From positions 32,001 to 96,000 of the IMG/VR virus record IMGVR_UViG_3300021255_002539: a stretch of 64,000 bases of DNA. One strand, written 5' to 3'. The notes beneath the pieces are model-generated. The model searched no databases and was not told the DNA's origin. It worked only from the letters and a program-made list of their open reading frames with translations. The stretch is from a virus. Its lineage: Duplodnaviria > Caudoviricetes. The position numbers and the translations under genes are program-made. Numbering within the stretch: the stretch's first letter is position 1; each line of letters opens with the position of its first letter. This document shows positions 1-57,225 of this stretch, one piece after another.

Positions 1-3000
1 ACGACATATCTCTCGTATCTGGACTTGATGCTCCTGCCCCTGGCCACGAAATGCAAATACTTCTTGTTGTTGTATTCGCTTATGACATATTCCCCCTCGA
101 TGTCGTCGCTGTTGGCCTTTACACTGTAGGCATATACCTGTCCAGAATCGTCAGAGATTGGGGTCATCTTCAACATCCCAGGAAGGTCGAGTTCTGTGCT
201 GTTCACCCATGTTCCACTTATCACCACACCTGGTTGTATGGTTGATGTGTTGATGTTGCCTACATCCTGCTGATATGTGATGTTCGATTTCCAGTTTTCG
301 ATTGGCATCCAAACCGCGTTCAGGTAGTTTTTGGGGCCATCAATGTCCTTGAGCAATATTGCAGTTGATGGATTCAGCAACCTCTCGACGATAATTCCAT
401 CCCTTATCTCGCCCTCAATATACCTGTCAGAAATTGGATTCAACCCAAGCAAATCGCCTTGTTGGACAATATCGCTTCTGAATACTGGTCCAAGATCTGT
501 CGTCGTGGTATACCCACTTGAATCCTTTGTCTTCAACCTCAAATTGCTGGTGACTACACCATCCACGCCAATGCTGTACAACTCGACATCGCATTCAGAC
601 TCCAACTTGCCACTGTACAGAACACCATTCCCCAAAGCTTGAATGCAACCCAACAAGTGGGGGTATTTGCCCTTGAATCCATCTATGAACCTGGCAATGT
701 ACCAATCCCAGGTTTTGTTGGCGTCGAACTATATGTCGAAATTGTCGTACTCGCACCACTCCGTGGCAACCTTGTCCACTACCTCGGACTGGACGCGCCT
801 TATCACAGACACCGTGTTTCTTGCATCGTTGGAGAACTTGAACCTCAACCCAGAGTCTGTCCATTGAGACTGTCCATCTTGCGTGAAGTATTGAACCTTC
901 AACTGGTTGTCGTCCACCTTGGCATACTGGATTTCTGTTCCCCCGTCGTCCAACACGCACCACAGACCATCCAATACGAACATGTTGTCCCTGATGTCGC
1001 AGATGTACTTGTCGTCGAATGTGATGTCACTGGATATCCACAGAACCATGCCATTCTGAATCTTGTATGTGGAGCCATTCAATGTGAATTCGTTGTTCTC
1101 GTCTACCTGTACCTGTCCATCAGCATGGAACAGAACATCGTTGAATTGGTTGTAGTATACGCTCGTTACCCTATATGGAATGTCGTCTGAATACACCACA
1201 TAGTACTCCACATCCCCATACACGAACTTGCCATTCTGAATCTGAATTGGCTCATACTGCATCTGATACTCGAATGTGTTGGTTTTCTCGAAGTATTCTA
1301 TGGCATCATCCAATATCTGGTATTCCCCATACCGATCACCCAACCCAGAGGCAGTCTTGTCGACGACACCCCAATTTCCATCAACGAACACCAACTGGTG
1401 CTGTTCACCATCGTGGTTGGTGTAGAACTTGTCTGTTGTGCAATAATAGGCAGCAGACTTGGTCGTGAAGTTCTTGAAGTCGTTGGGGTCGAAGAACATC
1501 GGACGGTAGAACTGCGACCTTATGAAGTTCTTCAATACTGTTGCATCCTCTGCCCATTTGCCAAACAATTCCCCCTTAGCAGAAGTCCAATCAATGCCTA
1601 TGACCCTGTTTGTGTTCAAGTACTTGGACAATGCTGCGAATTCTGCATTGTACCCAACCTGGAACAAGGTCAAGTCGTTCTGGTGATCCTTCAGGTCGTC
1701 ATATGTGGCATAGTCCTTGAAGAATGGGGATGATTTCACCGAAGCGACCATTTCTTGCTTGGCATTGTTCGCAGACATTATCACATTCACATCGTCCCTG
1801 GACAATGTAATCAAATTCTGCTGCAAATAGGCGTCTATTCCAGGATATACACCTTCACTGTAGCCACCGAGCACCAATGCCGTTTGCACATTCTCGGTTA
1901 TGTAGCTACGTATGGCATCTATGGCGTTCGCTATTGAATCCTCGTATCCATTCAAGGCAAGGGAATTCCACTTACCAGCAGAATAGTCGTTTTCCAAATG
2001 CTCAATGAGGTAGTCCCTGAAATACCTCAACAAGGGGAATCCACCAATCAATCCATCCACCAGTTCAGTGATATAGCCAGTCTTGTAGTTGGACTCGTAT
2101 TGCCCAGATCCACCAAAGTCTGTGGCAAGGGCTGCCTTCAGTGCAGATGCCCCACCCTTAATCAACCACTCAACATCACTTGTGGAGGAGGATGAGGAAG
2201 AAGGCTACTGCGAGAAGGCGTATAATGCTTCACAATAACCCTGAAGCGTGTTCGAACTTGGGTTTTCTTCCCGTATGAACTGAACCATGGACTGGAACCT
2301 GTCGTGCACCAGATCCTGGTTCATTCCCTGGAATTGGATGTTGGGGAATGTGTGACTCAATCTATTGTTCTGGCCAAGCCACCAAATGAACCCATTTCCA
2401 TCCTGGTTGACATGGTTGTTGTAGAGGTAGTATTCGCCGAATGCTGGGAGGTTGTGATCCCCCGAATACACCACTTGCCTATATAGCCAATCAACCAACA
2501 ACCTGACCAATTCGGGGTTGGCGAACAAGAGGCTCTTGAATTGAATCAAGTCCATGCTCACCAGGACATCTATGTATGTGTCGTCAACGCCAGCATATAC
2601 GCCGAAGTTCTGAGTTCCTCCCCGGAAGTCCAATCTTTTGCCAGTACCTCCAATGATGTAGTCCCAGTACTTGACGCCATCACTGTTCTTCAACGATGTC
2701 CAATATCCAGTCAAATCGCTCTCAGTGTATGTCCACAAGTCGTCGTACTCGATGAACTTGCCTCCCCCGCTACTGCCCAATCCGATGTCGGGTCTTGTCA
2801 ACTTGGACTCGTCCTCGAAAAACGACTGGAACTGCTCTACCTCCTTTTTCCCACTGTAGGAATATGTGATGTCGTTGGTGGCGTTCACCTCTATGTCCCA
2901 AAAGCCATAGTCTGTCATGGCAATCGACACACTGTCCAATTCACGCATCTACTCAACCTTGTCGAATGCCTTGTCTACAGCTATTGTCAATCCATCTACC

Positions 3001-4010
3001 ACCACTTGGTCTATCTCAGAAAAACCATATTTGGGGTCGAATGAACTCTCGTTGAGGAAGAAGTACCTGTACTTTGGCTTGTCCGAATTGGACTTCTCCA
3101 CCGCAACGAACAGGAATGTCGTCTCGTCTGCTATGGCATGGAAACTGCAGGTCTTGAACTCCATTTCAGATATGAAGTTTGGGGATTCTGCGCCAATGTC
3201 GTACAAGACCAGGCCAGCCAATTTGCCATTCTCCTGGTATGTGCCAAAACCCAACAGACCACTGTACTCGGAGTCTGGCAAGGTGCAGCACAAGATGTAC
3301 TTGCAGTTGCATATGTGCATGCCCTGGAACGCGGAATTGTCGTAGAATGCGTTCTCGACTATGCTGTTCACCTTGAGTTTGCTTGACTTGAACCACTCGT
3401 TTGCCGAGGCAGCAAGTGGGTTTGGATCCCTCTGACCAGCATCGTCTACAGGGTAGAGTGGAACATCCGAGAATGGGTTTCTGACATCAGAACTGTCGTA
3501 GAACCTGTTCATCGAATCCACAATCTCCATGTTGCTGTACACGACATCCCCATCGTCGTCCCTGATGTTCTGAACTCCATACCACACCGAATTCAGATTC
3601 ACAAACTCGTCAATCCCCTCTGGCAAGTCGAGCTTCTCGATGTCCAGGACAAGATCCCTGGTCTTGAATGTGCCATTGTCCCCATCTATGTCCAACAGCA
3701 ATTTGGTGGAGTTTGGCAGAATTGTGTTCTCGTCCAAACCCTCGACAATCTTGAAGTAGGAATCAGCCAGGACAGTGTATTCGTGGTTGTTGATGCAGTC
3801 AACAACATACGCGATGTCAACAATGTAGTTCGACAATATTGCGTTCAATGTACTTGAACTCGATATCTGATAGTCGTGCAGAATCAAGTCGTCCAAAGTG
3901 GGCTTGAACCCGCCATTCTTGCGTCTATTGGAATCCAATATCACTGACTTGAGAATGTTGCTCTCAACCAACGCCCTCTGCCTTATGTCGTTTGAATCGT
4001 ATCTGGTCAT
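1..4010 (-). CDS. Very large putative virion protein (>1336 aa, runs off window start); TAG=Gln
   Basis: ORFs 2949-4010, 2205-2948 and 729-2165 plus an open frame to position 3 join in one frame across TAGs at 2949, 2205 and 729. Late motif at 4052-4058. Confidence 0.8.
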
Positions 4011-4091: not shown

Positions 4092-4520
4092 ATGGCAGAA
4101 GAAAAAGCAGAACAACAAAAGACCAGAAGTGGCGGTGGATGCTCAGGTGGTTCAGGTGGAGCTGGAGTTGGGGAATACTCGGCGTCAGATGGTCAGTGCC
4201 ACGAAAACCCAAAGACCCCACTGTTCAAGTTGGAGATTGAGGAGAACAACCTCCCAGAGAACTGGTGGGACAAGCTCCCTGACTTCGATCCAAGAATTTA
4301 CGACGCAATAGCAATGGAACAGGCTGCCGCCTGCGTGACGTACATATTCGACGGCCTCCCAGACATCCACGAACTGGAGAACATGATTGAGTCCAGGAAG
4401 AACCCAAAGACCTGCCCCAGGTTAAAGACCCAAATTCCCAGAACCCAGGTCATAATTCCAAAAGAAGTGAAATGTGAGGTCAAGATTGATTCCTTCATCA
4501 AGAAAGATCAGACCTATTAA
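4092..4520 (+). CDS. Hypothetical late protein
   Basis: ATG 8 nt after the late motif. The ORF-track start at 4074 lies inside the motif. Ends TAA. Confidence 0.65.
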   Translation: MAEEKAEQQKTRSGGGCSGGSGGAGVGEYSASDGQCHENPKTPLFKLEIEENNLPENWWDKLPDFDPRIYDAIAMEQAAACVTYIFDGLPDIHELENMIESRKNPKTCPRLKTQIPRTQVIIPKEVKCEVKIDSFIKKDQTY

Positions 4521-6181
4521 CCGCATTGGAAGTTCATCTGCGCTTGGTTTGGAACCTTCGTCTGAACATCCTTGAACTCGTCCATCGTCACCTTCTGAAT
4601 CAACCCATCGCGTATCCTCTTCACAGCAAACGACCTGTCGTTGAATGTGACGTGTCTGGGCAAGGCCGAGAAGTCTGGAACCCTGTCTGTGAATATGCTC
4701 TGATGGTCAAACCTCTTGGTTGGGTTCTTCAAGTTGAGCCAATTGAACCAAAGCGACATTATGATTACATTCTTGCGGTGCATGTAGTCAATCTCGTTGC
4801 ACATCTTGAGGAACAACTTCTTGTTGATGGGGGCGAAGATGTGTGGCTCGTAGAAGTAAATGTGCTCTCGGTTCCCAACAAACCTGTCAAGCGTTTGAAC
4901 CAAAAGACTGTCCCATGAATTGTTTCGGCAATCCCGCTTCATTCCATCCATGAATGCCTAAGTCTGCTTGTACTCGAACACATACCTCGGGGCGAAATCC
5001 TCCCAATCGGTCCTCTTCGTCACCATTATGTCGTCAGAACAAAAAAGGAAATTGCTGGACAACTTGGGTATCTTCTCTATAGCAGTCCTTATCTTGTGTA
5101 TGATGTTCGCATCCTTGTTCGACTTCGTGATGTCAGGGGCGTAGATGTGGTGTACCCTCGGGTTCCTTATCAAGGGGTTCTCGCCAACGACATAGATGTT
5201 GTCCACCCAATGGTCGCAGAACTTCAATATTGATGTTATGGATATCTTAATCTCAAGGTTCTTGTACTTGCTCCCCTTGCCCAGAACATACACGACATCG
5301 TGGCGAATTGGCTTCTTGAGGTTGTACTGGAACAACCTCTCTGTGTCGGGGTCTATCTTTGGCCGAGATTCCCATGTCAATTGATCCAATCTGACGAACT
5401 TGGAACGGGATTTCGGAATCTGAACCACCCTCTTTTCAACACCGCCATCAACTGGCTCTTCTCTGAACAACCCAAAGCACTGTCCAATTGACTTGCCACC
5501 AGACAGATTCTTGACTATCCCAGCAACAGCATTGTCGTACCTCGGGCCAATCTCGTACTTGTAGTCGCCATGTGGCATGGTCTCAAGTGGAACGACAGAA
5601 TTGACGCGCTTCCCAACGCAATACTTCGTGCAGGGAACCAACTGGTAGCCATTGAGGTGGCAAAGATAGAGATATGTCCTGTCGTCGTTGCATGTGTCAA
5701 GGACTGGCTTCTGAACGAACTTCTCCCAATTGTCAAGCATCTTCTTCGTGAACAGCGAATAGCAGGACATAACATAGTTGTCCATGTTGATGGTTCTGGA
5801 TTGGTTCGATGTGATTGGATGCTCCCTGTTGTTGTCGTTGAAGTCCTTCATCCTCGCCTCTATGAAGTCCTTTGGGAGAAGGGCGTCGTCGTCAATGTCT
5901 ATGATGATGTCGTCGTCCTCCAAGTATGGCAGAACAGGAAACACCTTCTTCATGGACTTCGTGTTCTCCTCCACCCAATTGAGTATTACCCGATTGGATG
6001 TCATTATCAACTAATACAAGTCCTTCGGCAAATCAGCCTCCCAATTGGGGAATTCCTGATGGGACAATGTGAGGTAGATTCGGTCAGGAAGGACCGAATT
6101 ATCAAGTACAGAATTTATGACCTTGACGCAGTTCGTTATGCGCCTTGGAAACGATGTCATGCAAATGTTTATAGTGGACAT
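4517..6181 (-). CDS. Glycosyltransferase (GT-A fold) fused to Stealth-family sugar-phosphate transferase domain, 554 aa; TAG=Gln
   Basis: Three ORFs join across TAGs at 6011 and 4958. N-domain MTSFPRRI...IDIDDD. C-domain DVVYV...LEIKISITSILKFCDHWVDNIYVVGE...IPKLSSNFLFCSDD resembles Stealth CR1/CR2. Late motif at 6201 plus SD place the start at ATG 6181. Confidence 0.75.
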
Positions 6182-6218
6182 ACATATGATCCTTTGGGAG
6201 TATTTACCATTCACTTTC

Positions 6219-6977
6219 TCATTTGTCCTTGCCACGGAACTCGATGTTGAGTTTCTTCAATGGGTCGATGAGCCTGCCAAGGGGCGTGTACCTGAACTTG
6301 CGCTCCATCGCGTTCACGTCCTTCGGGAAGCACTTGCCACCATATCCCAACTTGCCATCTGGACCAGGGACTTGGGTATGGACGTCGTTGATGTATGTGG
6401 ATGCGAGGATTCCGGAGCGAACGCGCTCGTAGTCCATTCCCATCTTCTGGCAGAGGTCGTAGATGCAGTTGAAGTAAGTCACCTTCAACGCGCCAAACAC
6501 GTTGTGGGCGTACTTCACCATCTCAGCTTCCTCTGAGGTCATCTCCACGTACTTCTTGCCCACGAAAATCCTCTTGAGAATCTCGCGATGCTCTGGGGCG
6601 CCAGCGAACACCATAGGCTGCCACTTGAAGTCCTCGATGTATGTGCGCTCGGTCAAGAACTCCGGCATGTGGTAGACAATCCTGCCAGTGAGATCCGACA
6701 ACTTCTTGGATGTCCCGGGGAGAATCGTGGTTCTTATCCATATTGGACGACCCTTTGGCAAGCCATTTATGATGTCAATCAATGGCGTCAAGTCCTGTGT
6801 CCCATTGTCCTCTGTCGGGACATGTATTTGGATGAAATATGCATCGCAGTCAGACACATCGTCGTGGAAGCCCTTGTATGGGTCGGAGATGCGCAGTTCG
6901 CAGTCTGGATTGTTATTTTCCAGCCAGTTCTTCAATGCTCCACCAACGAAGCCACAGCCTATTATTCCTATTTTCAT
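6219..6977 (-). CDS. ugd: UDP-glucose/GDP-mannose dehydrogenase family protein (short phage form)
   Basis: IGIIGCGFVG Rossmann motif, VPT, RTTILPGT, PEFLTE, AEMVKYAHN and GYGGKCFPKD catalytic motif. Confidence 0.88.
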   Translation of the reverse strand: MKIGIIGCGFVGGALKNWLENNNPDCELRISDPYKGFHDDVSDCDAYFIQIHVPTEDNGTQDLTPLIDIINGLPKGRPIWIRTTILPGTSKKLSDLTGRIVYHMPEFLTERTYIEDFKWQPMVFAGAPEHREILKRIFVGKKYVEMTSEEAEMVKYAHNVFGALKVTYFNCIYDLCQKMGMDYERVRSGILASTYINDVHTQVPGPDGKLGYGGKCFPKDVNAMERKFRYTPLGRLIDPLKKLNIEFRGKDK

Positions 6978-7705
6978 AGTAAGTGCTCCTTATTATTTTC
7001 CTTAAATTCTCTTAATCTATTATTATAGTCTTCAATGCTTTTATTCTATCCTCTACTCTCAGAACCATACCAAAAATGAGATATGCACTTCCAAATATCC
7101 ACATCCTTGTATTTCACACCATTTGCTGTAATCCACAAATGAAAATACCATCCAGGGTCAGCGAAATAAGTATTTTCAAACTATTTGTTGATATTTAATG
7201 ATTGGATATTTATGCCAACACTAACATCTGATTTATGGTAGGATATTTCCCTACCATTAAATGAATCCAAGTTAAAATACATAAGCATCGGCTATATTCT
7301 CCCGCCAAACAAACAAGCATCCTTTGTAAGTAATGTCCAAGACTGGTTTACATAATTTCCAACGACTTGAAAATTAGTATCGCATATTTCAGACAAATCA
7401 CATTTTACAATGGTATCGTTTTCAACAATCAATAATTCTTCATACTCCAAATGATTTTTTATAATGTCAAGTATTTTTTGAATTGCCGGAGCATGAGACG
7501 ATATATTATATGATTTCTTGAAGTTCAATATTGTAATGTTGTCATAATTGAATTTACTATCCAGGGTAAAATCTTTGTCAGATGTTGAAACTATCCACAA
7601 GTCAAATTTATCTTGACTGTTGTATTTATACAAGCTTTGAATAAAACACTCGTTGGTTATTCTATCAGCATTAAAGGTTATTGTTGCTATTAGTCGTTTC
7701 TTCAT
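6974..7705 (-). CDS. Putative glycosyltransferase, 243 aa; TAG=Gln
   Basis: Read through TAGs at 7292, 7181 and 7046, the frame ends at a TGA overlapping the ugd ATG (ATGA). LLIVENDT DxD-like motif. Confidence 0.65.
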
Positions 7706-7720
7706 AAAATTCACTCTGGT

Positions 7721-8473
7721 TTATACACATACATTCTATGCTTTGCACTTTGTGTCGTCATTGTAGTTCCACGAAAAATCATTGAAGTGCATGAAATACA
7801 TTGATTCATCCATATTGGGAAAACATGTATTCTATATGTCTTGGTGCGTTATGGTTGCATCTCTAAACTTCTTTTTCAATGTCTCAAACTGAGATTTGAC
7901 AACATCATTGTCAAAATGCCTATCATAGATTGAAAATATGAATTTCCTCTTTGACGTCCAGTAGATGTTTGACCACGCCTCCTGGCACTGCAACTTGCAT
8001 AGACTGTCAAATGAAAACATGTTCGTGTCAAAACCAATGGCGCACTTGTCTGACGATTTATTGTCCATGTGCATTATGCCAATCATGTCATTGTCCAGTA
8101 TCTCATCGGAAAACGACTTTATTGGATATGTGTCGCAGTCAATGTAGATTCCACCAACCATTGAAACCAGATACACCTTGAATCTCTCCAGGATTTCCAT
8201 AATGTTCTTTACGGTTTTCCCTTGAACACCCTTGTATATCTTATCGTTAGAATTCACCTTATAATGGTGTATTGCATGCCACAATGCCTTGTCCTATGGG
8301 TTTTCCACATTTTCAAGTTCTTCTCTGGAAAGGGATTCAATCTTATCCTTTGTGTACAGAACCCTGTTTATTTCATAAGAAGGATTCATTTCCCCATATG
8401 CAGTGAGGACATGTTCGTAATAATCAGGAACATTGTCCCCAAGCCATATAAAATGCAGACTTTTGTCAATCAT
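7721..8473 (-). CDS. GT32/OCH1-like DxD glycosyltransferase, 250 aa; TAG=Gln
   Basis: MIDKSLHFIWLG, GGIYIDCD and C-terminal YFMHFNDFSW. SD AAGGAGG. TAGs at 8294, 7832 and 7736. Confidence 0.8.
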
Positions 8474-8495
8474 GTGAAACTTACCTCCTTCATTT

Positions 8496-10634
8496 TCATT
8501 TTTCTATTTTTGATTTCAGCATTGCCTTCAAATCATCCAATACTGGGCTGTCTTTGCATTTGGAAATCACCCCAAGAAACAGTTCAAAGGACTTTTCCCT
8601 CTTCTTGTTGTCCGTGGTAGTCATTATGGAGTTTGAATGCACAGTCCTCATATAGCATTGTTCCTGAATCTACATGCACCTTTTGGCGCAGTTGAACACC
8701 ATTGGGGTGAACACAACATCCTCGTGGATTGCATTTTCAACGAAGGAAATGCAGTTCTCTCTCAGCATGTGCCTTTTCATCACAGAACAACAAGCAGATT
8801 CAATATATGACTTGTTCTTCTTCAGTTTGAAGTACAATGTATTGCCATCCAGAACCTTATCAACATATTGATTTATGTCCCCCTTCAATGAATAATACCG
8901 CTCATATCCCTTGGCAGTAGTATCATCCTCCTACTGATTTACCACTTTGAAGGTGAAACGAAGAAAATCCAGGTCGTTCTTCTAGCAAAGAGACATCCAC
9001 TTGTGTACCACAAACTTGTTTGCAAGGTAATCGTCAACATCAAGGAATTGCACATAATCCCCGGTGGCGTTCTTCAAACCAATGTTTCTTGGATTTGAGC
9101 AACATCCGCTGTTTTTGGCAGTCTTGAACACTTTTATGTTGGAATACCTCTCTGAATATTCCTTCAGAATTTTATTCGAGTTGTCCGTGGAGCAGTCGTC
9201 AACGCATATGATTTCAATGTTGTCGTAAATCTAATTGAGCACTGAACCAAGGCATCTGTCAATGTACTTCTCAGCATTATACACAGGTATGATGATTGAT
9301 AGCTTCAAACTTCTATTCGCCTATGTCGAATTGGAATATGTTGCCACCATATCGTGCAATACTCGCACTATGACATGCTTGGGCTAATTGGAGAATTTGT
9401 ATGTGTTCTTTTGTATCTATTCATAAAACCCATTGTAGTCAATAAGTCCCTTCATCAACTCATTTGCGTTCTCTTTCTTGTTCTTGACAAGATGCAAATT
9501 GCATAATACCTTGAACATTGGATTTGAAAAGTCGAGCCAAGCGAGAAGTCCGTTTTCGTCGTCGTAAATGTACTTGTTCATCCACGGATAGAACACAGAA
9601 ACCATAAAGTCCCTTTGACCATATGATCTATTTGCCATATCTCCATGGAAAAAATGGCATACATCAACATAGTTTGCTCCCATTAGGCTCTTGTTGGAAC
9701 TTTTGCTCAATCTTCTCATTACATAGTGAACATATTTGCGTTTACATAGTTTAGGCAACCATATGGCCGTGTTCTCAATGTCAGTAAGTTCAGTCCAAAA
9801 TAGGATATCACCTCCACCAAGTGGAAGGAAATTGAAATAATCTATGTACTAAAGAGTATTTTTCTCTATGCAAAACACACCACCTGGAGCGCATGTGTTC
9901 AATATTCGATCAATACTACAATTGGACAATTGGGACGAAAATGATTTTTTGTGGCGTTTTGTCTCCTTGTCGTTTTCATCCAAATACACTATGTCGTTAA
10001 ACCCCTGTGTGAACAAACACTTGTCCAAGGCATCGTAGACTTGCTTGAACCAGTCCTTATCCTCCAATGGGGAAATGTCGGAGTCCACGAACATCAATTT
10101 CTCGTACCTGGCACGTTTAGCTGCTATATTCCACAAATGCTCCTTTTGGAACAAGTACTTGTGGGAGTCATTGCCATCTATCCTTATATATTGAATCTAC
10201 TTTGGAAAGTCCTCCTTGGAAAATGTGAATACCCCATTGAATCCAAGCTCAATGAACATCATTTCCTTTGGTAGATGCGATTGCTTCATCCAGCAATTCA
10301 CTGCCTTTTTAGTGGCGACTTTCCTCAACTCATTTATGCCAGCATCGTAGAATACAGAAACCATCGTCATGTCCAGATAATCGTGTTGCTTGGGGTCAAA
10401 ATCAACCAAGTCAAACTCTCTGTTCCATGTCATCTTGACTTGTGGCTTGGACATCACAAATTGGATAAAGGATTCGGGCAAATCAATCATTCTATTGGGA
10501 AACAATGCTGTGGGCATCTTAACATACACCAACTCAGGCTTGTTGGTGTTGGTCATCAACTCGTCTATATCCTTTATCAAAGAATCAACATCCTATTTGT
10601 ACTCCAACTGGACAACATTCTTTCTACCATCCAT
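8496..10634 (-). CDS. Two-domain glycosyltransferase (GT-A-like plus canonical GT2), 712 aa; TAG=Gln
   Basis: Ten TAGs (10593, 10197, 9849, 9417, 9384, 9321, 9231, 8982, 8931, 8670). C-domain KLSIIIPVYNAEKYIDRCLGSVLN*IYDNIEIICVDDCSTDNS...RNIGLKNATGDYVQFLDVDD...HEDV. N-domain FQKEHLWN...FVDSD. SD AAGGAGA and late motif at 10663. Confidence 0.88.
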
Positions 10635-10702
10635 TTATGATAAATCTCCTTCATTCAAAGGGTATTTACCATTTCCAATCCAATTGCAATTGCACACCAA
10701 AA

Positions 10703-11629
10703 TTACTTACGGGAACTTATTTCCATCAACATCTTGGAATACTCCACTACACCATAATCATTCAAATGCCTGCAATCGCACATCCATTCTGCCGGTGGAA
10801 CAAACGATTTTATTTCATTGTGTTTCTGAGACAATTCCCTGCAAGTCTTAGTCAAAACACTATCTACAACCAAGAACTTGAAATTTGGTTTTGCCAAGAT
10901 ATCCTTTACAGCATCATATTCCCCATAATGAACATGCTCCAAATCCATGGTAACTATCGTCTTGTCCTCGTTTTGCTACGAGGAAAGTTCTCGCATCATT
11001 GGAAGATGGTGATATGAATGATGACCGCTTACTCCAAGCGTGGCAACATTGACACCGTACTGCCGATACATGTATTGGGAAAGTCCCATATGGTTTACAT
11101 TATTGCAGGTTTGGGCGACACTTGAACCGAGTATGACAATTGATGGTGGCACATAGTCGTACTATATCGGTTGATCAGATTCAATTTCCATCTTCTTGAC
11201 AAGTCCATCTGGAGGAAGACATATTTGAAACTTATCGTACTTGTTTAAGTTCCATATCTTCGCCTAAATCCATGTCTTGTCAGATTGGCAATCAAGAGGG
11301 GAATAACCGTTGAGTTCGCTCAACAAATCCCACCTATTGTCCTGACTGGAATATCCCAGGACGGTGCATTCCACCTTCTGACGCTTGGATATTCGATAGA
11401 AGTCATCTGAAAAATGACAAGTATACCTTAAACTCCATGACTTTGATTTAGTGCGAATGACTATAAACAAACCACATCCATATCTAAGAATCTTGTCTAT
11501 ATGCGTGTTTCCACTATTGCCATCATATCTATAGAAATTGCTTGATTGTTTCAACCTTCCCCAAAGGAATTTCACATCCACATTTGTTTTCATATTTACC
11601 CCCACATAGTCATCCATGCATAAATTCAT
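10703..11629 (-). CDS. SGNH/GDSL-like hydrolase (possible O-acetyl esterase), about 308 aa; TAG=Gln
   Basis: ORFs join across TAGs at 11264, 11162 and 10976. IVILGSSVAQ, NVATLGVSG and DCRHLNDYG blocks. Start uncertain (11629, 11617 or 11593). Confidence 0.65.
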
Positions 11630-13460
11630 TGTAATTCAACGGTCTTTGACTATAAGTCATATAATCATTGTGTATTGTGCCTTTGTTTGCAAACATCCAC
11701 TCCACCAATCTCTTGGTGTTGTTTGTATCCACATATGTAAACAACTTGTGCGAAAAATCGAATTTCCCGGTTGATGCATCCAACAACTCCTAAATCTTGG
11801 ACAATGCTTGTTCCTATGTCTTGCAATAGGACATGTGAACATAATCCAAATGTTCAAGATGATAGTGGTTTAACGAGGCATTCAAATCATTGATCCCAGG
11901 TATATATATGACAGATGGTTTGTCCATATATGCCATCTCAAATGAATTGGATGAGAAATCAGTTACAATCACATCACTTTCCACCAATATATCCTGAAAT
12001 GTATCGGTTTTTGGAATCTTCACCCAAGATGGTATCTTGAACCTGGATAGTTTATTGAGTAATTTGGCATGGGGAAGAAACACAATTGACACCCCAGAAT
12101 CATGCAATTGTTTCAACTTCTCACTGGCCAGGAAATTGTTGATGTCATTGAAGTATTTGGATGTTCCACCACCTCTTCGCCAATGAAATGATATAAAAAC
12201 CTGCTTTTTGCGCTCTACAGATGAACGCAAGGTGTTTTTCTCCAATAATGTGTCATGCCTGGGAAATCCAAGAAGAAGGGGTGTCAATTTTCCTTTAGAA
12301 TATCTTGTCAACACCTTGTATTCCCCCCTTGAAGTAGCCAACATATATTTCGCTTCACTTGATATTGTTCCTGAAATATAGAACGAATCGTCATATATCG
12401 TAGATGTGACTCCATGTCCCATGAATATGGTTTTATACCTGTTGCTCATCAAGGTTGTTTTGATGTCTGTGTTTGGAACATCCTTTGAAAACAGAACAAA
12501 AGTGGCGTTTTTTATGATAAACCCAATATGTTTCCCCTCAAATGGATATAGATTAAATCCTTCTGACTTCAGCCTTGTCCAATCCTTGCTTTTGTTGGAT
12601 AAAATGAATGTTGCCTTTATGTTTGGATAATCATGGGAAATGCGTTTATACAAGAACTCTCCGTTGTCTCCGGCCTTGTCGAATGAATCAAATATAACCA
12701 CATTGAACAACGAGTCTTCAAATGACTGTGGCATCACCTAATTGTATCTCAGTTCAATCTTGGGAAATGCATCTTTGTTTGATAAATATTGATGTGTCTT
12801 TCCCATTGGAAATACACTTCCCCTCTACATCATATTCCTTTTGGCATACCCATTGTGTGCGGATATCTTCTTGGATGGCAACACCCAATACCCATTTGAA
12901 ATCATCAACATTGTATATAGAAAATCGTCGTTGTATGTGTGAATAATTTCATCACATAGAATCTTGTCGTAGTTCGCAAGCATCTTTTTCTGGAAGATGG
13001 ACATTGCCGTTACATTGTTATATACAACACCGTTATACAATGGCAAATTCAAATGCCACTTTGGATTGGAACCGCCAGATATTGGAAATCTGAAATCTTC
13101 TTCTGCAAATTCGTTCAACCGAATTTCAATATAGTCGTTTGGTATCACAAAATCATCATCGACATTTAATATAATGTCCTCGTCGTCAATCAATGGCAGA
13201 ACTGGGAACACCTTCTTCATAGTCTTTGTGTTTGGACCTTCCACCCAATTTATCTTGAATGTTGGTTCAATTTTCGACAACTATACCAAATCAGAGGGTA
13301 AATCAACCTCCTTGTTCGGAAACTCAACCACTGCCAAGTTCAAGTATATGATGTCTGGCTTAACTGTGTTGTTCAATATAGACTTTACGACCTAATAGCA
13401 ATTTCCAATCCTCTTTGTCCAAGAGGTCATCGTCACCACAACCTTGTGCCCGTTAAACAT
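11610..13460 (-). CDS. Glycosyltransferase fused to TagF/TagB-like CDP-glycerol (polyol) phosphotransferase, 616 aa; TAG=Gln
   Basis: Six TAGs (13392, 13281, 12825, 12738, 11814, 11790). N-domain is paralogous to 4517-6181. C-domain AGDNGEFLY, GHG, GFPRHD, LPH, DVIVTDFSSNSFEMAYMDKP. Late motif at 13497. Confidence 0.82.
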
Positions 13461-13579
13461 GTCCTATAGTTTCCTTTGGTCTACCCAATTGTTGGTATTT
13501 ACCATTTCACATTAAAATTCAAGATTGACCAATTTCTAGATCAACCTTGGATTCTTCCAACAAAACTTGGCTTATGCCA

Positions 13580-31005: not shown

Positions 31006-31007
31006 GT

Positions 31008-33728: not shown

Positions 33729-33773
33729 CACATTTCGTATTTACCATTTGTGGAGCAAATGGAACAGACAAGC

Positions 33774-45424: not shown

Positions 45425-47185
45425 ATGCGAGGAGACCCAACATATACGCAATACGACATGTCCGAGAGGGGGGAGGAGAAGAAGTACCCAAATTGGAAGG
45501 ATGCTGCCCCAAATCTGCAGACATTCCTCACTGCCCTCAACCAATCTCAACCAATAATCCAATGCCAATACGAATTGGTGTGGAGCAGATGGCCGAGGAC
45601 AATCTTCTTCGCAAAGAACATCACGATTCCTGGCGTATCTGTGAACACGCTTGACATCTCCCATGCTGGATTCACCATCAAGATACCAACTCACGTCACA
45701 TACGAAACCACAGAGGTCTCGATAAACATAATCGCTGACAAGGAGGGCTTCCACTACTACGACCTCAGGAACATGGTTCTGCAGACTGGACATCCATTGG
45801 TTGCTGGCGATCCAAGGGCCACAATTGGAAACCCATACGGACTGTCACCTGACGAGGACACATTGGAGGTCAGATTGCGCAACAGACCCGAGGACGAGAC
45901 CCACCACCACTGGATTCTGCACAACTTCCACCCAACTGGGATAGGAGACCTTGAACTGACCCAAGATGGTGGTGGATTCGTGGAGTTCGAGTTGAAGGGG
46001 ACGATAACCCATGTCACATACGATTGTGGAAACAGCAACGGAGAAATGCCACAACAAGAGCAGCAACAGCAAGAAAGCCAACAGGAAGGTTCGAGCAACA
46101 ACCCAATCGTGCAACTGGCGTAGTCCCCAACACTTGGCGTGTATGTATACAACACTGAAACCCACGAGGGCAAGTGGGAGCGAACAGGGCAGCCCGTTGA
46201 TGTGTCTAGCGTGGTTCTGCCACCTGGAACATCCCAATATGGCGACAATCCAGATCTGAACTACGACGGTTCATCCACGCAAAAGTGGAATCCACAGGAT
46301 TGGGATGGCGACCCAAACACCCAATACATCGTCAAAAGCGAAACCCTTACTGCTGCGAAGAAGGATGTTCAGGTTGATGGCAAGACGATGACAATGGTGA
46401 AGATTCAGGGGAACTTGACTCCAGAACAAACAGAAATACTGAAACAGGGTGGAACACAGGCATTGATCAACCAACTTGAGATGGAGAACAAGGAACAAGC
46501 AAACATCGACCAATATGCCGAGGATTTGCAGGAAATCAGCGACCAATCCAGAAACAGCAACTAGTCTGAGCAACAACCCCCAGAAGAAGACGACCAAAAC
46601 ACATCTGGATTTAAGATATAGGCGACGAAAAGCGCAGATGGCACATACACGATTGAAAAGGCAACCATGTTCAACTCGTCGAAGGTGTTGACGCAAGACG
46701 ACATGGTTGTGCAAACGCAGATACTCACATCACTGAGAAACGACTACGAAAAGTCCAAGGGAGGGAAGAACACTGTGATGCAGGCGCATCTAAAACGGCA
46801 AGTCGAACTGCAGGAGAAGAAGATGAAAGTGATGCAACAGTGGATTGACGAGCGAAATGCAGAACAACCCCAGACCAGAGGTGGTTCCCTTCCTGTTGGA
46901 TAGATGTCCCAAAGCCAATTGGAGCAGCTGAAGTACCTTTTCGAGGCGGTTCAATACAACTACGACCTGCCAGACAACTTCATAGTCGTAGTCAATCCAC
47001 TAGAGGAAATTGAAATATACAACCAGAGATTGACCAAGATGAGCCTCCCAGGGAGATTTGGAATGTACAAGTCCACAAAGAAGGATGCTGAGGAAAAACT
47101 GGACATAGACCCAGAAGACCCACCCTTCAACCCAAATCCAAGAAAAGTGGATCCCAACCACAAGGTCAGGGATATATTCGGGTGA
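45425..47185 (+). CDS. Second tail-tube-fold protein with long C-terminal extension, 586 aa; TAG=Gln
   Basis: Four ORFs join across TAGs at 46121, 46562, 46619 and 46901; FAKNITIPGV...LHNFHPTGIGDLEL...EFEL tube-like domain. Confidence 0.72.
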
Positions 47186-47304
47186 TTCAGATTCGGAATT
47201 TCGTATAATTGAGGCATAGGTAAGTGTAAAGGGTGGTATTTACCATAACTTCAAGTAAAAGGATACATGGTGATGCTCCCAACCAACAAAGGAAACAAAA
47301 CACC

Positions 47305-47961
47305 ATGCCAAGAAGAAAAACCGAATCACTGGAGGAATTCCAGAAGAAGAACCTAGAGAAGTCCAAGATAAGATAGAGGTAGAGGGCGGAGCAGGAGAAG
47401 ACCAACCCGAAGCCAAAGCGCAAGCCATTCGTCAACAACGCAGAACTTCTGGACGAATTGAAGAAGTGGCGGGACTCCAACGAGGACGAGACAAAGAGGG
47501 TTCCATCAGAAAGGTTGGGGAAGATGATGCAGGACATAGCCACGCACTACATGGGACACCCAGACTATGTTCGATACCCCAAGGAAATCAAGGAGGACAT
47601 CATTTCAATGTCCTACGAGAGGATATTCAAGACTGCGATATTCAAGTACAACTTCAACTTCACGAACCCATTCGCGTACTTCACTCAGGTTTGTTGGAGC
47701 TGTGCGATGACCTACCTCAAGAAGCACTACGACTTTTTGAACTTCAAGAGGAAGCTGGTGAAGGAGAATCTGGAGAAGGCGATGGACGAACTCCCATCCA
47801 TCAACATAGACAAGTCCTACATGACCTTCCTGAAGAACATGATTGGCGCAGATCAGATAACTGAGGCAGACGCCAAGTTCCTGAAACGGCAGAAGGACTC
47901 CATCATCCAGGAGATTCTGACAGAGAAAGCCAACAACGAAGACGACGACAACATCAACTGA
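47305..47961 (+). CDS. Late-transcription sigma factor, T4 gp55-like, 218 aa; TAG=Gln
   Basis: FVNNAELLDELKKW, LGKMMQDIA, PDYVRY, KEDIIS, NPFAYFTQVCW; SD AAAGGAAA; TAGs at codons 24 (47374) and 26 (47380). Confidence 0.88.
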
Positions 47962-49350: not shown

Positions 49351-50850
49351 TTATTGCTATCCAACAAATGGCATTTCATATACCTGTATCTTGTACTCGG
49401 TTGGTGTGAACCCAGAGGTTTCTGGATACCACTCTATGATTTCGTGTGTTCCACTGCTGTCAAGTTCATGTGTTCTCTTCGCCAATGTACACACATAGTC
49501 CCATGTTCTATCCGTTACATAGGAATATCTTGTACTATCGACAATATCGTTTTCAATGGGTTTGTCCAAAGATGTTGGTGCATATTTCCATGCTGGTGGC
49601 GTGTCATCTGTCTTGCGGTCGCTTAAATCAATGTCACATGCCACGAAAGGCGAATCATAGGACCAGGTTTTTGGTGATTCCAATCTGCTTTGGAACTTCA
49701 CGAAGTGGAATGCGAATACTATCTTTGTTCCCTGTTTTACTGGTAAATTGAATGCAGACTCTGGTTCTGGTCCCTTGAACATCTCCAGATGACGGAACAA
49801 CCTGTATCCAAGGATATTTGTCCCATCATATGTGAATATGGAGAATCCATCGCCATAGTGGTCAGACAAATCTTGCCCCTTTACATATAGAAAGCAATTT
49901 GTTCGTGCTGTATATGTCAAAAACCCACTTTCCTTGGCAAAACCCCTTGAATCGCATATGGATTTACCCTCTGTGTCTGTGTGGTTTTCACCCAGTTCAT
50001 ATTCTGTGCTGGCTGTGTATATGTGCCCTATTCCTCCATTCCACACTGGCGTTGTCAAGTCTATTGTCTTGTCGGAATCCATCACTATCCCAGGAACACT
50101 GTCCACCTGAACGCCGTTTTGTCTGATGGTCAATTCGTGGGAGGGAAGATTGATTGTCTTGTCGCCACCCATCATCCCATTTGCACTGCCAATCGTCTGT
50201 GTGTTACCTTTTGTTATGGTCAAGGTTCCGGCTGGGAGTCTTAAAGTCTGATCATTGCTCATTACAATGCCGTTGGCAGTTACAGCAATCGTCGCCTCTG
50301 AATCGCCATATGATATCGTCAAGTTTTTCTTCGGTAGCGTGATGGATGTTGTTTCAGACGGGTATTGTCTCATTGTATTGAAACTCAAGGTCTGATTCTC
50401 GATTGCCAAGGTGATGTCCCGTCCAAAGCCACCAAATGTTGTTGGTCCACCGGGAGTCAAGTTTCCATTTGCTATCTAAGAACCATTGTTGTCCTTGAAC
50501 ACCAAGGTATATGTTGGGGATGTTGTATGCGAGGCAACCTTTTCAATCAACTCCAAGATGGCGCGCAGGTCATATGTTATGTTGTTGTGCTGGTTGTTGT
50601 TGAAGTAGCTTATTACGGTCTCGCTTCCAGACAATGCGTCTTGTATGTTTGGCAATCCCATGTTTGTGCTTGGATTGTCGCTTCCTGCCAGAATGTTCCA
50701 TGTAGCCCCAGAACCACTGTATCCATATGCCGAGCAAACTGTCTTTTGGCAATGTCTGTGGAACTTGACTGGATCTTCCCCCGCTCTGGTTGTTTGGTGG
50801 AATGTCGTTGGCATGTCGTCGCCACTTGAATTTGGTATTGTTGTGTTCAT
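49351..50850 (-). CDS. Tail fibre-like protein, 499 aa; TAG=Gln
   Basis: N-terminal region is paralogous to 50882-51871 and the alignment continues across TAG 50476; repeated LTI...GI.M..DKTI.LP units; ends TAG CAA TAA. Confidence 0.72.
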
Positions 50851-50881: not shown

Positions 50882-51871
50882 TCAGCGGGTTCTTTTCCAC
50901 ATGGTGACGCCAAAAGATGGTGGTCTCAATGTAGAACCGACAGTAACATTGGAAACAGAAGAATCCAGTATTGTCGTTCTGGTTGTTCCTGTTGTATATC
51001 TCCCAACATATACCCATCCCGTTTGTTTATCGGTCAAATCGTTTTCATGTCCATAATATTCTGGCGCTTTGTCGTGTTGGTGTGTGTGTTGTGGGAATAT
51101 GCCATCCAGATTCTTATTCAACTCACTGGCATCAGTGGTATTCCACAAAGTCCTGCCAGTTCCAATTTGGGTCCAAGTTGAAGACACCCCATCAATACCC
51201 TGGAATGGTATCCTGTTATCGACACTTATGTATATCGAACCAACTGGCCAGAGTTGGTTGAACATGTTTTGCGTCAATTTCACTTCTGGGGTTGGTGGTG
51301 TTGGAATGTTGAATTCAGTCAATTCCCTTCTCTCGTTGATTCCAATTGGTCCCTCGTAGCCTTGGCGGATTCCGTTCTTCACTTTGATCGTGTTGGTATT
51401 CCCAGACTTGTCGATCTGCACAATATCTCCAGCAGCCAAAGTGGGTACTGGAATGGTTATGCTCGTACTTTCAGATTGACCCTGAATCATGGTGTTGAAA
51501 CTGAGGTTCTGACCGTTCACTTTCAAGGTGATGTCCCTGCCAAAGCCGTCAAATGTTGCTGTTCCATTGGGGGACAAGCTTCCACTGGTTATGGTGGAAT
51601 TCCTGTTGTTCTTGAATTCCAAGGTATAGGTTGGAGTGGCTGTTTTACCTGCAACACTGTTAATCAACCTCAATATCGAAGCCAAGTCTTGCGTAATGTT
51701 TTTGGTATTGCTGGTGAAGTAGTTTTTCCAATTGCTGTCCAGGTTCGTCAAAGTCAGTTCGTCTATGACATTCCATGTGGCTCCATGACCAGTTGGGCCA
51801 TATGCAGACAATACTGTTGCTTGGCAATGCCTGTGGAAAAGCAAATCCTCGTTGTTGTTTTCGTCGCTCAT
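50882..51871 (-). CDS. Tail fibre/baseplate protein with gp10-C-like tip
   Basis: WPVGSIYIS...WTQIGTGRTLW...PQHTH...PPSFGVTMWKRT; late motif at 51904. Confidence 0.75.
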   Translation of the reverse strand: MSDENNNEDLLFHRHCQATVLSAYGPTGHGATWNVIDELTLTNLDSNWKNYFTSNTKNITQDLASILRLINSVAGKTATPTYTLEFKNNRNSTITSGSLSPNGTATFDGFGRDITLKVNGQNLSFNTMIQGQSESTSITIPVPTLAAGDIVQIDKSGNTNTIKVKNGIRQGYEGPIGINERRELTEFNIPTPPTPEVKLTQNMFNQLWPVGSIYISVDNRIPFQGIDGVSSTWTQIGTGRTLWNTTDASELNKNLDGIFPQHTHQHDKAPEYYGHENDLTDKQTGWVYVGRYTTGTTRTTILDSSVSNVTVGSTLRPPSFGVTMWKRTR

Positions 51872-51903
51872 TGTATTTCGCCTCTAAATTCCATTACATT
51901 CCC

Positions 51904-51935
51904 TATTTACCATTTCATCGTTTTGTTGTATAATA
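51904..51935. promoter_or_regulatory. Divergent late(-)/early(+) promoter pair sharing one element
   Basis: TATTTACC / TTTACC-17-TATAAT. Confidence 0.7.
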
Positions 51936-51975
51936 TATTGGACATCCACAAAGGAAGGAAGGAGAAAGAAACAAC

Positions 51976-53187: not shown

Positions 53188-54834
53188 TTACTTTGGCTCT
53201 GGGGTGTCGTATGCCAACTTGGTTGCGGCGTCGCAGGCCTTTGCTATCGTGTCGACCGCATCAAATGGCATGTCGATGAAAGGCTGCACAACCTGAACCA
53301 CTTGTGGCAGTGTCAGGTTCAACGCGCCATTGCAGCAGGTGTCGGCTTGATTTGGCACCTTCCAGCACATATCCAACAGATCCTCCAGTGGTGGTACGAT
53401 TTCGATGACCATCTTCCATATATCGAATACCTTGTCTATTATCTGTTTCGCCAATTTCGCGAACTTCTGAACGAACATGTTGATTATCAGCTCGACTATC
53501 TTGTCTATGACAATGTGCAGGTTCTGATATATGAACTCAACCTCAATCAAGACCTCCATGACAAGCATCATGTCCTTTGGTGGCACCATTGACATGTCTG
53601 GTCCCTCCAGGGATCTCAACTTGTACAGTACCATCTTCGCCTTTTGCCTGACAATCTCCTTTAGTATCTGCAGTTTGTCCTGGAAGTCAATCATCTGCTT
53701 TCCAATGGACATGTTCGGCACCTTGAGTGGTGGTGTTGGGAAATTCTTGCATGCCCCCTTTTTTATTGCCTCCCTTATCTGCTCCTCGTTGTAGCCACCA
53801 CAGCACTTTGTGACCTGTTGGTACATCTCCTTCCCACCTTCCCACACCGCGTCAATCGCGCCACCCATGACTTCCTGGACAAAGTCGAAGAATTCGGACA
53901 GTTCCTGCTTGCACTCAGACCATGTTGGGAGTTCATCTGCCTCGTCCACGCCCAGTTCGCCTTGTATGTTTTCAGCCAGGAAGTCGGGTATCCATTGTTG
54001 GTTTTCGCTCCAGGTCATCTTCAAGATTGCGATGAACAAGGGATGTGAATAGGGGTGTACTGCATTCACTGCCCCCATTACCTTGGTCATCAGATACGCA
54101 ATTGCCATCTTCTTGGCCGAGTCCAACGACGCAGTCAGAAGGTCTCTGGCCCCATTTCCCTCTCCGACAATGGATGTGAGGGACTTGATGCAGGACATTC
54201 CCTTGTCCATTGCGGTCCTCACCAACTCCAACTGGCCATGTGCCTGTGATACGGATGCTGAGCAAATCTCCGGCACTGGAACCCTTACCGACACTTGTGC
54301 GCCATCTGTGGACTGGGTTATCGAAACCGTGGCCTTGGCAGCCAGTTCCCTGGCTGTGTTCCCTTGAATTGCGGTTGCCATCCAGTTTGTGCTTTCCTGA
54401 GATGCGAAAGTCCTGGCGGCCTCAATTGTGCTCTGCCCAAAACCCGTGTCTGGCAAGTATCCAACTGACACATCCACGATGTCGTCAACCAACTCCTGCA
54501 CCTCGTCCCTGTTGGATGGCTATACCTACATGGCGGCGTCCACGATTCCCTTTGTCGTTCCAACATGCGATGTCCTAATCACTTGTGGATTCTGCATGGA
54601 CACTGACGTGAACATTTGAAACAACTTGTCCATCTTGGATTTGTCGTTGTATTGGTTCATGAACGACCTCAACTCGCCAATGGCATCTAGATCCACAATG
54701 GATTTCTGGTAATGATGATGTGCATTCTTCCTATTGGCAGACGACACACCAGTTCTGTGTGGATGACTGTTTTGCTTGACCTTCGCAATCATCCTTCTGG
54801 GGTTTACATGCTTTTCTATGTGTCTGCGTTCCAT
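53188..54834 (-). CDS. Hypothetical late helical protein, 548 aa; TAG=Gln
   Basis: ORFs join across TAGs at 54526 and 54520; ATG 9 nt after late motif. Confidence 0.7.
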
Positions 54835-54843
54835 CTATGCGCC

Positions 54844-54875
54844 TATTTACCATCTTTGGCGTCAAATGGTAAATA
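54844..54875. promoter_or_regulatory. Divergent late/late promoter pair
   Basis: TATTTACCAT...ATGGTAAATA. Confidence 0.72.
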
Positions 54876-54882
54876 CCAACAT

Positions 54883-57225
54883 ATGAGCGACACGACTACA
54901 ACATTTAGCATGAGGGACATCAACAACCTCCTGACGAATCAGTTCCAGGAATACACCCTTCTCTTGAACAGTATTGTTGGTGGCGGTGGGTTGATTGCCG
55001 AATCGCAAATACGACAGATATACAAATACGACTCTGACGCCAACAGGGAATACGACAAGGGTCAGATTGTGTTCAAGAATGGAATAGACTCCCTTCAGTA
55101 CATGCTCGACCACAAGGAATCAGTCGCCAAGATGATTGGGTTGAAGGATGGTACCGAGATATTTGAGGCAAGAAGGGATTTCGGCAAGACCAGCGAGTTC
55201 CTGTCGAGGATGAACAGTGCCTATGAACTGGGGGATGTGAACCACCCAATGCAGATGTACATGTCCAAGGTCAATGGGAATGTTGGCGAATTGGACATAC
55301 TGCAAAACTGGCAGGACTACATAATGTCCCAGAGTTGGATTGACGACCTCGCCAAGTTCTCGGCGAATGGGGATGCCTCCCAGACAATATCCGACTACCG
55401 CATATCCTATCTGTCCGACATCATACAACAGATGGTGAAGGAACACGAACTCAACTACCACAAGCAGCTGTCTGAATTCGACGAATCCCTCTACATGGAC
55501 GATGGGGGGGATGACGACTACATTGACGCATTGAACATGGTTGGTTCCATGGGCAAGTTGGAATATGGCTTCTACGAGATGTTCAAGCCAATTGGCAGAA
55601 CCACAGAGAAATACATCAAGGTGAAGATGTCCACTGATGGGATACTCGACATAACTGGCGTGGTTGGTTTGGAGGATTGCGAACATTGGGAATGGGAACA
55701 TGGGTCCAGGGACTACCTTCGGTCGCTCAACAACGGCAACCAAAGGTATATGCTCCAGTTGTCGAGACCGATCAACGACTTGTCCGAGGAAAACCCTGGC
55801 GGAAGCGTGATTTGGTGGAGGCCCGACAACCCAGAGCCACTTGATGGCATAGAGGAAGTGGATGGAGAAGAAGACACAGAGAAGCAGATGCGGTACTTCA
55901 AGCCCTACGAGACAGAACGCATGTTGAGGTGGTTTGGAACGACATACATCCCAGTTCTGGACATAGACAACATATACAAATGCACTGTATGCTCAATACC
56001 CCAATTGTCAGACGATGTGCAGTCAAACGACTTCCACCTGGATGCCACCAACATAGCAGCGAACGGCATGGACTTGGCCCGGGCGAACATAGACAACTCC
56101 ACTTCCCTGTCCCTGTTGACGCTCGCGCCAAAGGCGACAATCAAGGTCGAGAACCACGACGAGCGCACATACAAGATTGGGCAGTTCCTGAAGTTCATCG
56201 TGTCTGGAGGCCAATAGACTTCTGTAATGGCATTCCATGTTCGGGGCAAGGCATACGACGACATCCAGGAGATGAACCACTACATCGAAACATGGGAGTC
56301 GTTCACGGACATACATGAAACCCTGTTTGGATGGAAACTGGCACTTGAACTTGCCGAATATGCCCACCCAGAGGTGGTGGAGAAGTGGAACATCAATCAC
56401 CCAGACGACAAGTGGATACCAAACGACTGGACAAGGACACTGGAATCCACGACCAACATTTGGTGGGATGCCACATAGATTGACATGCTCCGTCTAAGGC
56501 AACTTGACATTGAGACTCTAGTCGGGAGATTCCAACAGGACTGGGATGACAGATTTGGATATATGTCTTCTCAACAATCAACAAAGGGGTGGTTCGACAA
56601 TGTATACAACTACATGGTGATGTTCAGGAAATGTGGAAAGAACAGTGGGCCCGATTCCTCAGACACAAGCAAGAAGGAACTGGACATCCTCTATCAGGCA
56701 ATAACCAACATATCAAACAGCGCCAAGGACGCAAGGTTGAGGAAACCATTGAACTTGATGTATGGCGTATATGAAGACTATCTTTCCAATGATGAACAGA
56801 AGAGGATAGATGATAGGGAAGAAAGATACGACATCATCTTCGACGACATCACCGTTGACGAGTTGAGAATCAGAATCCAGACATTCAACAACCTGGTTGT
56901 CAGACTTCCTGTCGACACCAAGCACAACAAGATGGCATCCAAGCACATATTCAAGGATTGGCAGGCATTTGTGGATGGTGCAGTGGATTATCTGGTTGGA
57001 ATGGAGCAGCTGTTTGTGGAAGACGACGAGAGTCAAGGTCTCGGCACCGATGGACTTCTGCATGGGTTCAAGGAACTCTACATAGACGAAAGCAAGTCCA
57101 TTCCATTGATTGACTATTCCTACATCTGCGATGGCAAAGACTTCGAGCATCCATACATCGACGAAAAGACAGGAAAGCCAGTTGCCGACAGATGGGACTA
57201 TTGGAGCGAATCTGACTTCGATTGA
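54883..57225 (+). CDS. Hypothetical late (virion) protein, 780 aa; TAG=Gln
   Basis: Three ORFs join across TAGs at 56215 and 56476; ends at a TGA abutting the convergent gene. Confidence 0.72.

Follow-up and report, generated by a model that had tools for sequence, protein, structure and literature searches.

In a 64,000-nucleotide stretch of a virus genome (Duplodnaviria; Caudoviricetes), a series of open reading frames (ORFs) end at an amber codon (TAG) and resume behind it in the same frame, which raises the questions of whether TAG terminates translation in this virus and, if not, which amino acid it specifies, what decodes it and at which stage of infection. The stretch, hereafter called the window, comprises bases 32001-96000 of one IMG/VR virus record (IMGVR_UViG_3300021255_002539), which is 414,060 bp long and is designated G000; coordinates refer to the window unless they are marked as genome positions. 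G000 has direct terminal repeats, a completeness rating of 100% and 48% GC, and its habitat is the animal gut, with ruminant gut samples as the source; near-identical contigs are present in a sheep-gut run of another study. A search with the portal protein yielded G001 (418 kb) and G002 (434 kb), two relatives with complete genomes, the full sequences of which were compared with G000.

TAG is a sense codon in this genome, and TAA and TGA remain stops. Genes were called with our own codon-usage ORF caller (not Prodigal), the score of which was trained on long code-11 ORFs. Under code 11 the window gave 86 ORFs with a mean length of 237 amino acids (aa) at a coding density of 0.881, compared to 60 ORFs, 366 aa and 0.920 with TAG as sense; genome-wide, the number of calls decreased from 514 to 395, the mean length increased from 226 to 308 aa and the density rose from 0.84 to 0.877. 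These fewer, longer and more densely packed ORFs agree with the reassignment that an initial annotation, made from the letters of the window, had claimed, and correspond to a gain in density of 3.9 points in the window and 3.7 points in the genome. Reassigning TGA or TAA instead lowered the density of the window to 0.772 and 0.877, respectively, and as coding density and score fell genome-wide as well, both possibilities were rejected. With TAG as sense, each of the 395 genes terminates at TGA (280) or TAA (115), and 108 of them contain in-frame TAGs, 315 in total and up to 20 in a single gene. Throughout the genome the codon-usage score over the 40 codons downstream is +7.75 after TAG, compared to -4.95 after TGA and -2.65 after TAA, and the next 40 in-frame codons are free of TAA and TGA in 84% of the code-11 ORFs that end at TAG, versus 25% and 38% of those ending at TGA and TAA. 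Both TAA and TAG are strongly depleted on the two strands of the genome (0.27 and 0.41 of the expected frequency, respectively; TGA, 1.17), and consequently off-frame ORFs reach great lengths and any naive list of ORFs is crowded with antisense shadows.

The conventional view, that the TAGs are true stops in fragmented, decayed or mis-assembled genes, or that they are sequencing errors, has nothing in its favour beyond the code-11 default and is already contradicted by the results, so that its probability appears negligible. In every case the fragments join up again in the same frame, and the coding signal persists past TAG. As the initial annotation had described, the rejoined genes of the window end at TAA or TGA, with an ATGA start/stop overlap at 6974-6977, and the TAGs at 729, 6011, 13281, 9231, 32064-32069, 50476 and 56476 lie exactly where it had placed them. 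Its count of 56 TAGs in 16 genes is a slight underestimate of a sound observation: the curated list contains 65 TAGs in 21 window genes, and the realistic total is about 60, given that four or five TAGs close to N-termini (54688, 51884, 38299 and 37015) possibly lie upstream of the true start, as judged by the positions of late promoters and the starts of orthologue alignments. Pfam domains run across TAGs, including GT2 (residues 446-626) and Glyphos_transf (residues 268-605), as well as the domains of the portal protein and terminase, which are essential and whose genes contain TAGs. The paralogue alignments invoked earlier also hold: residue 75 is a TAG in 4517-6235 as well as in 11610-13505, within a block that is 42% identical, and the alignment of 49351-50850 to 50882-51949 passes through TAG codon 125. 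Finally, TAG is exchanged with CAG among the three independent complete genomes, and 21 TAG-TAG columns are conserved between them; together with the near-identical sheep-gut contigs, this conservation across independent assemblies indicates that the TAGs are not sequencing errors.

The residue specified by TAG was assessed in orthologue columns of G000 versus G001 and G002 (234-272 reciprocal-best pairs, ~60-64% identity). The codons found opposite TAG were mostly CAG (109), followed by TAG (42, that is, the 21 columns counted from both sides), CAA (39), AAG (31), GAC (18) and GAG (17). When residues were tabulated over 339 columns, Gln was the most frequent partner (148), ahead of Lys (37), Glu (31) and Asp (22), and the log-likelihood of the partner profile was -747 for Gln, -1160 for Glu and -1167 for Lys. 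CAG partners exceed CAA partners 2.8-fold, compared to a 1.6-fold ratio in overall usage, which fits single C/T changes. Structural homologues concur: in the 712-aa family-2 glycosyltransferase, the TAG at 9231 (residue 468) aligns to the Gln of the 'S-x-L-x-Q' motif in the best PDB homologues, and that at 8982 (residue 551) to another Gln, whereas the TAGs of the portal protein, terminase and TagF-like enzyme fall in poorly aligned regions of the respective PDB alignments. Both contexts from which Gln had initially been deduced, 'GSVLNxIYD' around TAG 9231 and the 'QQSTQxxNQ' run at 32064-32069, were found as described. On these comparisons of sequence, TAG encodes glutamine, as the initial annotation had proposed, and accounts for 7.2% of all Gln codons genome-wide. 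Another residue, such as Glu or Lys, might be considered because Lys, Glu and Asp together make up 27% of the TAG partners. We find this hardly credible, as the share of Lys and Glu equals that in the substitution profile of genuine CAG and CAA codons, the log-likelihood of Gln exceeds that of Glu by 412 units and that of Lys by 419, TAGs align to the Gln of the glycosyltransferase motif, and the cognate tRNA of G002 (see below) has the D-arm and acceptor features of the phage tRNA-Gln(UUG).

Among the decoding genes that the initial annotation had named, no release factor (PF00472) or glutaminyl-tRNA synthetase (GlnRS; PF00749) gene was found in G000, G001 or G002, and a tRNA with the anticodon CUA was found, albeit noncanonical and outside the window. 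ARAGORN predicts 28 tRNAs and a tmRNA in G000 and calls a tRNA-CUA in both G001 and G002. The G000 counterpart was located by a combined motif and stem search (YU-CUA-R in the loop, 5 bp in the closing stem), which returned one candidate, at genome position c[297902-297980]. Its sequence folds into a perfect cloverleaf, in which the anticodon loop reads CUCUAAC and the CCA end is encoded; a box of the TATAAT type lies upstream, and a terminator made up of a hairpin and a T-run lies downstream. The slot of the CUA tRNA, directly downstream of an orthologous giant gene, is common to G000, G001 and G002, and a conserved box, GTATAATTGAA, lies upstream of it in all three. A homologue on an unrelated 6.9-kb viral contig has identical D- and T-loops, and 6 of the 21 stem pairs are compensatorily changed.

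The identity features of glutamine tRNAs include U1-A72, G2-C71 and the discriminator G73. All of these are present in the candidate, which shares them and the CUA anticodon with the supE-type tRNA-Gln(CUA) of E. coli. Unlike the latter, the candidate has a D-loop, AAUGCCUAAUA, that lacks GG and an 8-nt T-loop, GUGGCAAA, that lacks T-psi-C; the GCC of the former and the GGC of the latter could pair with each other. This noncanonical tRNA is likely to be the decoder of TAG. Another unusual tRNA, in the main array outside the window (genome c[367853-367926]; unassigned by ARAGORN, 43 bits with Rfam), combines an acceptor stem of 8 bp with an anticodon loop of only 6 nt, GUCAUA; the loop is of the CAU type, and the tRNA is not a UAG reader. 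A 15-mer scan for the anticodon arm retrieved mostly chance matches and a few unrelated phage tRNA-CUA genes. On the 6.9-kb contig (L153:2270-2431), two tRNA-like genes with CUA anticodons and noncanonical T-loops lie in tandem, and the homologue of the G000 tRNA described above is the second of them. The tRNA-CUA of G002 (L081:988-1077; G002 c[410487-410576]) possesses a long extra arm with a 4-bp hairpin, the 3-nt loop of which reads CUG, the Gln anticodon, and its D-arm is nearly identical to that of the phage tRNA-Gln(UUG).

TAG use is distributed unevenly among the operons of G000. Three classes of upstream motif were recognised genome-wide, AT[TG]GTAAATA, TGTGGTATAATAT and TTTTCGTATAATTGAA. 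The first is a short A/T-rich late box located ~32 nt before the starts of late genes, and in the operons that follow it TAG constitutes 9.6% of Gln codons, compared to 2.4% and 2.8% in the other two classes; the odds ratio of late-motif operons versus TATAAT-type (sigma70-like) operons is 4.06 (p 3.7e-16). Among the genes of late operons, those of lower GC content make more use of TAG (Spearman -0.47). Long genes that are free of TAG encode DNA polymerase B, NrdD, topoisomerase II, DnaB-like and DEAD helicases, and Cpn60.

In phage T4, the sigma factor gp55 acts at TATAAATA late promoters. G000 shares with T4 both a gp55-like gene and a short A/T-rich late box, the latter differing from TATAAATA, which is present only 4 times in the G000 genome. 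The gp55-like late sigma factor gene (47305..47961, plus strand; phrog_234 match, 5.4e-17) contains TAGs at 47374 and 47380, i.e., at codons 24 and 26, and so, unlike in T4, its translation would need amber suppression. At least one TAG is present in codons 24-26 of all six orthologues, from six contigs, although the positions shift. The gene is preceded by a promoter-like box, GTATAATTGAGG (47203..47214, plus strand), of the same class as the box of the tRNA-CUA gene; the class common to the two genes is GTATAATTGA, and a GTATAATT box precedes the gp55-like gene in 6 of 6 orthologues. In the leader of this gene, 20-30 nt downstream of its box, lies an antisense late-promoter motif (47237-47244, minus strand), which is kept as TATTTAC[CA] in 6 of 6 orthologues and could provide negative feedback or allow the late polymerase to occlude the promoter.

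The explanation that we consider highly probable as a whole is that TAG is read as glutamine by a phage tRNA(CUA) in conjunction with a late switch. Early genes behind sigma70-like TATAAT boxes would avoid TAG and hence be readable by the standard code of the host. The phage tRNA(CUA), with its Gln-type acceptor features, would then decode TAG after being charged by the host GlnRS, because the phage encodes none. The tRNA and the gp55-like sigma gene would be driven by one promoter class, GTATAATTGA. Given the TAGs in codons 24-26 of the sigma gene, the suppressor would have to be present before late transcription can start at AT[TG]GTAAATA promoters and before the TAG-rich late genes can be translated. 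A more elaborate form of this scheme, to which we give somewhat less than an even chance, would have the code change wired into a T4-type cascade as a checkpoint: late transcription awaits the meaning UAG = Gln, TAG ends some early genes, and the tRNA escapes detection, its elbow being rebuilt as a short D-loop/T-loop helix that perhaps evades tRNA-targeting host defences.

A number of observations weigh against the explanation by a phage suppressor and late switch. Gln is found at 44% of TAG partners, compared to 64% for ordinary Gln codons, and TAG is therefore placed at less constrained sites; orthologue columns from the window alone are few, with Gln in 7 of 25. The major capsid protein gp23, a late gene, contains no TAG; the initial statement that TAG is reassigned across late genes thus stands as an enrichment and not as an absolute rule. 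The promoter classes are sequence motifs, for which timing is deduced by analogy with T4. ARAGORN, with default and relaxed settings and with and without introns, calls no credible tRNA-CUA in G000 (the intron mode gave noise only), the Rfam tRNA models have no match at the G000 CUA locus even at an E-value of 1, and the fold energy of the candidate is not unusual (z -1.33). No RF2 gene or RF1 inhibitor by which the host RF1 would be outcompeted was identified. Lastly, a few extreme C-terminal TAGs align with true stops in orthologues.

That standard finders miss the G000 tRNA might indicate that suppression comes from a host tRNA-CUA, or that the host itself reads TAG as sense, with the phage tRNA-like gene being irrelevant; suppressors of the host or of a co-infecting phage have indeed been proposed for jumbo phages that lack their own (PMC13037316). 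This is very improbable here, as a CUA tRNA is retained at the corresponding place, downstream of a conserved promoter, in all three related genomes, the stems of this tRNA covary, and early genes avoid TAG, which would be expected solely with a host that treats TAG as a stop.

The C-terminal TAGs, in turn, suggest that TAG may still end some early genes. Those at 61945 and 49357, and those at genome positions 273368-273826, are situated 1-8 codons before a TAA or TGA stop and opposite the stops of orthologues; from their placement, they may be original stops that were retained together with a backup stop. TAG could accordingly have two meanings, a stop for some early genes under the code of the host, backed up by a TAA or TGA a few codons further on, and Gln only once the suppressor tRNA has accumulated, with partial, competitive decoding instead of a clean reassignment. 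In the gene of a gp46-like SMC/AAA_23 ATPase (61918..63870, minus strand), the TAG at 61945 precedes the TGA stop by 8 codons; G001 shares this TAG, and G002 has one immediately ahead of the stop. A second early gene has a TAG one codon before the stop position of the G002 orthologue. Of the 29 TAGs in early operons, 5 are within the last 15 codons, compared to 2.1 expected (p 0.058), a weak enrichment, and the TAG-free capsid gene as well as the failure to find an RF2 or RF1-inhibitor gene would also be compatible with incomplete decoding. Genes with up to 20 TAGs, on the other hand, would need very efficient read-through at each site. We regard two meanings of TAG as rather doubtful, and the idea refines the explanation by a phage suppressor and late switch more than it contradicts it.

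Reassignment of TAG to Gln (code 15) is established in phages, including Lak, crAss-like, Agate, Sapphire, Garnet and others (10.1101/2021.08.26.457843; PMC9523058; PMC13037316). G000 has in common with them the TAG-encoded Gln, the enrichment in late and structural genes, the tRNA-CUA and the animal gut habitat, and its proportion of recoded genes, 27%, is close to the 26% of the Sapphire clade. The recoding is therefore of a known kind, and what G000 adds is a new T4-like lineage. Its T4-type genes encode the capsid protein gp23 (PF07068, 5.5e-71), the portal protein gp20 (PF07230, 8.6e-67) and the gp17-type terminase, TerL (PF03237, 1.3e-11), accompanied by genes for the gp10 C-terminal domain and the gp55-like protein, and the gp23 protein is at most 31% identical to that of any GenBank phage. 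The window is part of a complete T4-like jumbo phage of 414 kb from ruminant gut, and the suggestion in the initial annotation that it belongs to a lineage different from those of Lak and crAss-like phages is borne out by the T4-like genes, the divergent capsid protein, the size and the 48% GC.

The named code-15 clades, which average 22-562 kb, differ from G000 in gene set, size and GC content. Lak megaphages, of ~500-660 kb (562 +/- 44 kb; 10.1101/2021.08.26.457843), are considerably larger than the 414,060 bp of G000. RF2 and GlnRS genes, found in only some members of the code-15 phages, are represented in G000 by neither, and G000 is further distinguished by the rebuilt D- and T-loops of its tRNA and by the TAGs in its late sigma gene; the word 'sigma' is absent from the preprint describing many of these phages (10.1101/2021.08.26.457843). 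Jug phages, a group of T4-like jumbo phages from the gut with genomes of 360-402 kb (PMC12880540), resemble G000 in their T4-like markers, a size near 400 kb and their origin from animal or human gut, but are described as standard-code and low-GC, which sets them apart. Searches for related loci gave no match with the 905-aa late protein of the window (33839..36556) and a single distant match with the family-2 glycosyltransferase.

The screen of Borges et al. considered contigs of at least 100 kb with a density gain of more than 5% under code 15 (10.1101/2021.08.26.457843), whereas the gain in G000, as measured with our crude caller, is ~4 points. TAG-to-Gln recoding occurs here in a deep-branching T4-like lineage of jumbo phages, at a density that may slip below published screening thresholds. 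Low-density recoding of this type would go unnoticed in density-based screens, and large phages may therefore use code 15 more often than has been reported. In practical terms, annotation with code 11 splits about one quarter of the genes in G000 and its relatives, among them those for the portal, terminase, tape measure and baseplate proteins and several proteins of 1500-3900 aa. The idea that recoding times late expression gains a testable handle in the amber-containing late sigma gene and the suppressor tRNA of the same promoter class, and the noncanonical tRNA illustrates why a suppressor seems to be missing from many recoded phages.

At the left end of the window lies the N-terminal part (3..4010, minus) of a giant late protein, 3450 aa in length and encoded at genome 25658-36010, with TAGs at 2949, 2205 and 729 in the window and a late motif at 4059. 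Further minus-strand genes encode a 1486-aa tape-measure-like protein (26551..31011; 6 TAGs), a 746-aa late protein (31491..33731; 7 TAGs, including the TAG TAG at 32064-32069 in the Gln-rich run; late motif at 33745) and the 905-aa protein mentioned above (minus), in which TAG 36467 is opposite CAG in both relatives and which has a late motif at 36572. A tail-tube-like protein is encoded on the plus strand (45425..47185; 4 TAGs). The minus-strand gene for a baseplate protein with the Gp10 C-terminal domain (50882..51949) has a TAG at 51884, possibly before the true start, and the paralogue of this gp10-like protein (49351..50850, minus) has TAGs at 50476 and at 49357, the latter one codon before TAA.

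Two further late genes are divergent, one for a protein with a weak match to head proteins (53188..54834, minus; TAGs 54526 and 54520) and the other on the plus strand (54616..57225; TAGs 56215 and 56476). Between them, at 54844-54875, two late motifs stand back to back, at 54851 (minus) and 54868 (plus). As the longest ORFs of the two genes overlap, the divergent motifs indicate that the true starts are located further in; that of the plus-strand gene probably follows the late motif at 54868, which would make TAG 54688 non-coding.

A low-GC island (6219-13505; GC 0.39-0.41) holds a set of genes for glycopolymer synthesis, namely UDP-sugar dehydrogenase-like, DXD glycosyltransferase, family-2 glycosyltransferase and TagF-like genes. 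Minus-strand genes with TAGs in the island encode an island protein (6974..7714; TAGs 7292, 7181 and 7046), the TGA of which overlaps the next ATG, a DXD-type glycosyltransferase-like protein with a weak Pfam match (7721..8473; TAGs 8294, 7832 and 7736), the 712-aa family-2 glycosyltransferase (8496..10634; 10 TAGs), another island protein (10703..11629; TAGs 11264, 11162 and 10976) and a TagF-like CDP-glycerol glycerophosphotransferase (11610..13505; 7 TAGs). An adjoining gene (4517..6235, minus; TAGs 6011 and 4958) encodes a Stealth_CR2-like protein that shares its N-terminal domain with the TagF-like enzyme, in which TAG 13281 occupies the column of TAG 6011. The island is absent from G001 and partly present in G002. 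It contains 26 TAG and 16 CAG codons, with TAG making up 35% of its Gln codons, an excess that may reflect either mutation bias or an origin in a recoded phage of lower GC content. Elsewhere in the genome (223906-225354; L003), a BspA-type leucine-rich repeat protein has 10 TAGs that recur at the same two positions of a 23-residue repeat, which suggests that the repeat units were duplicated together with their TAGs.

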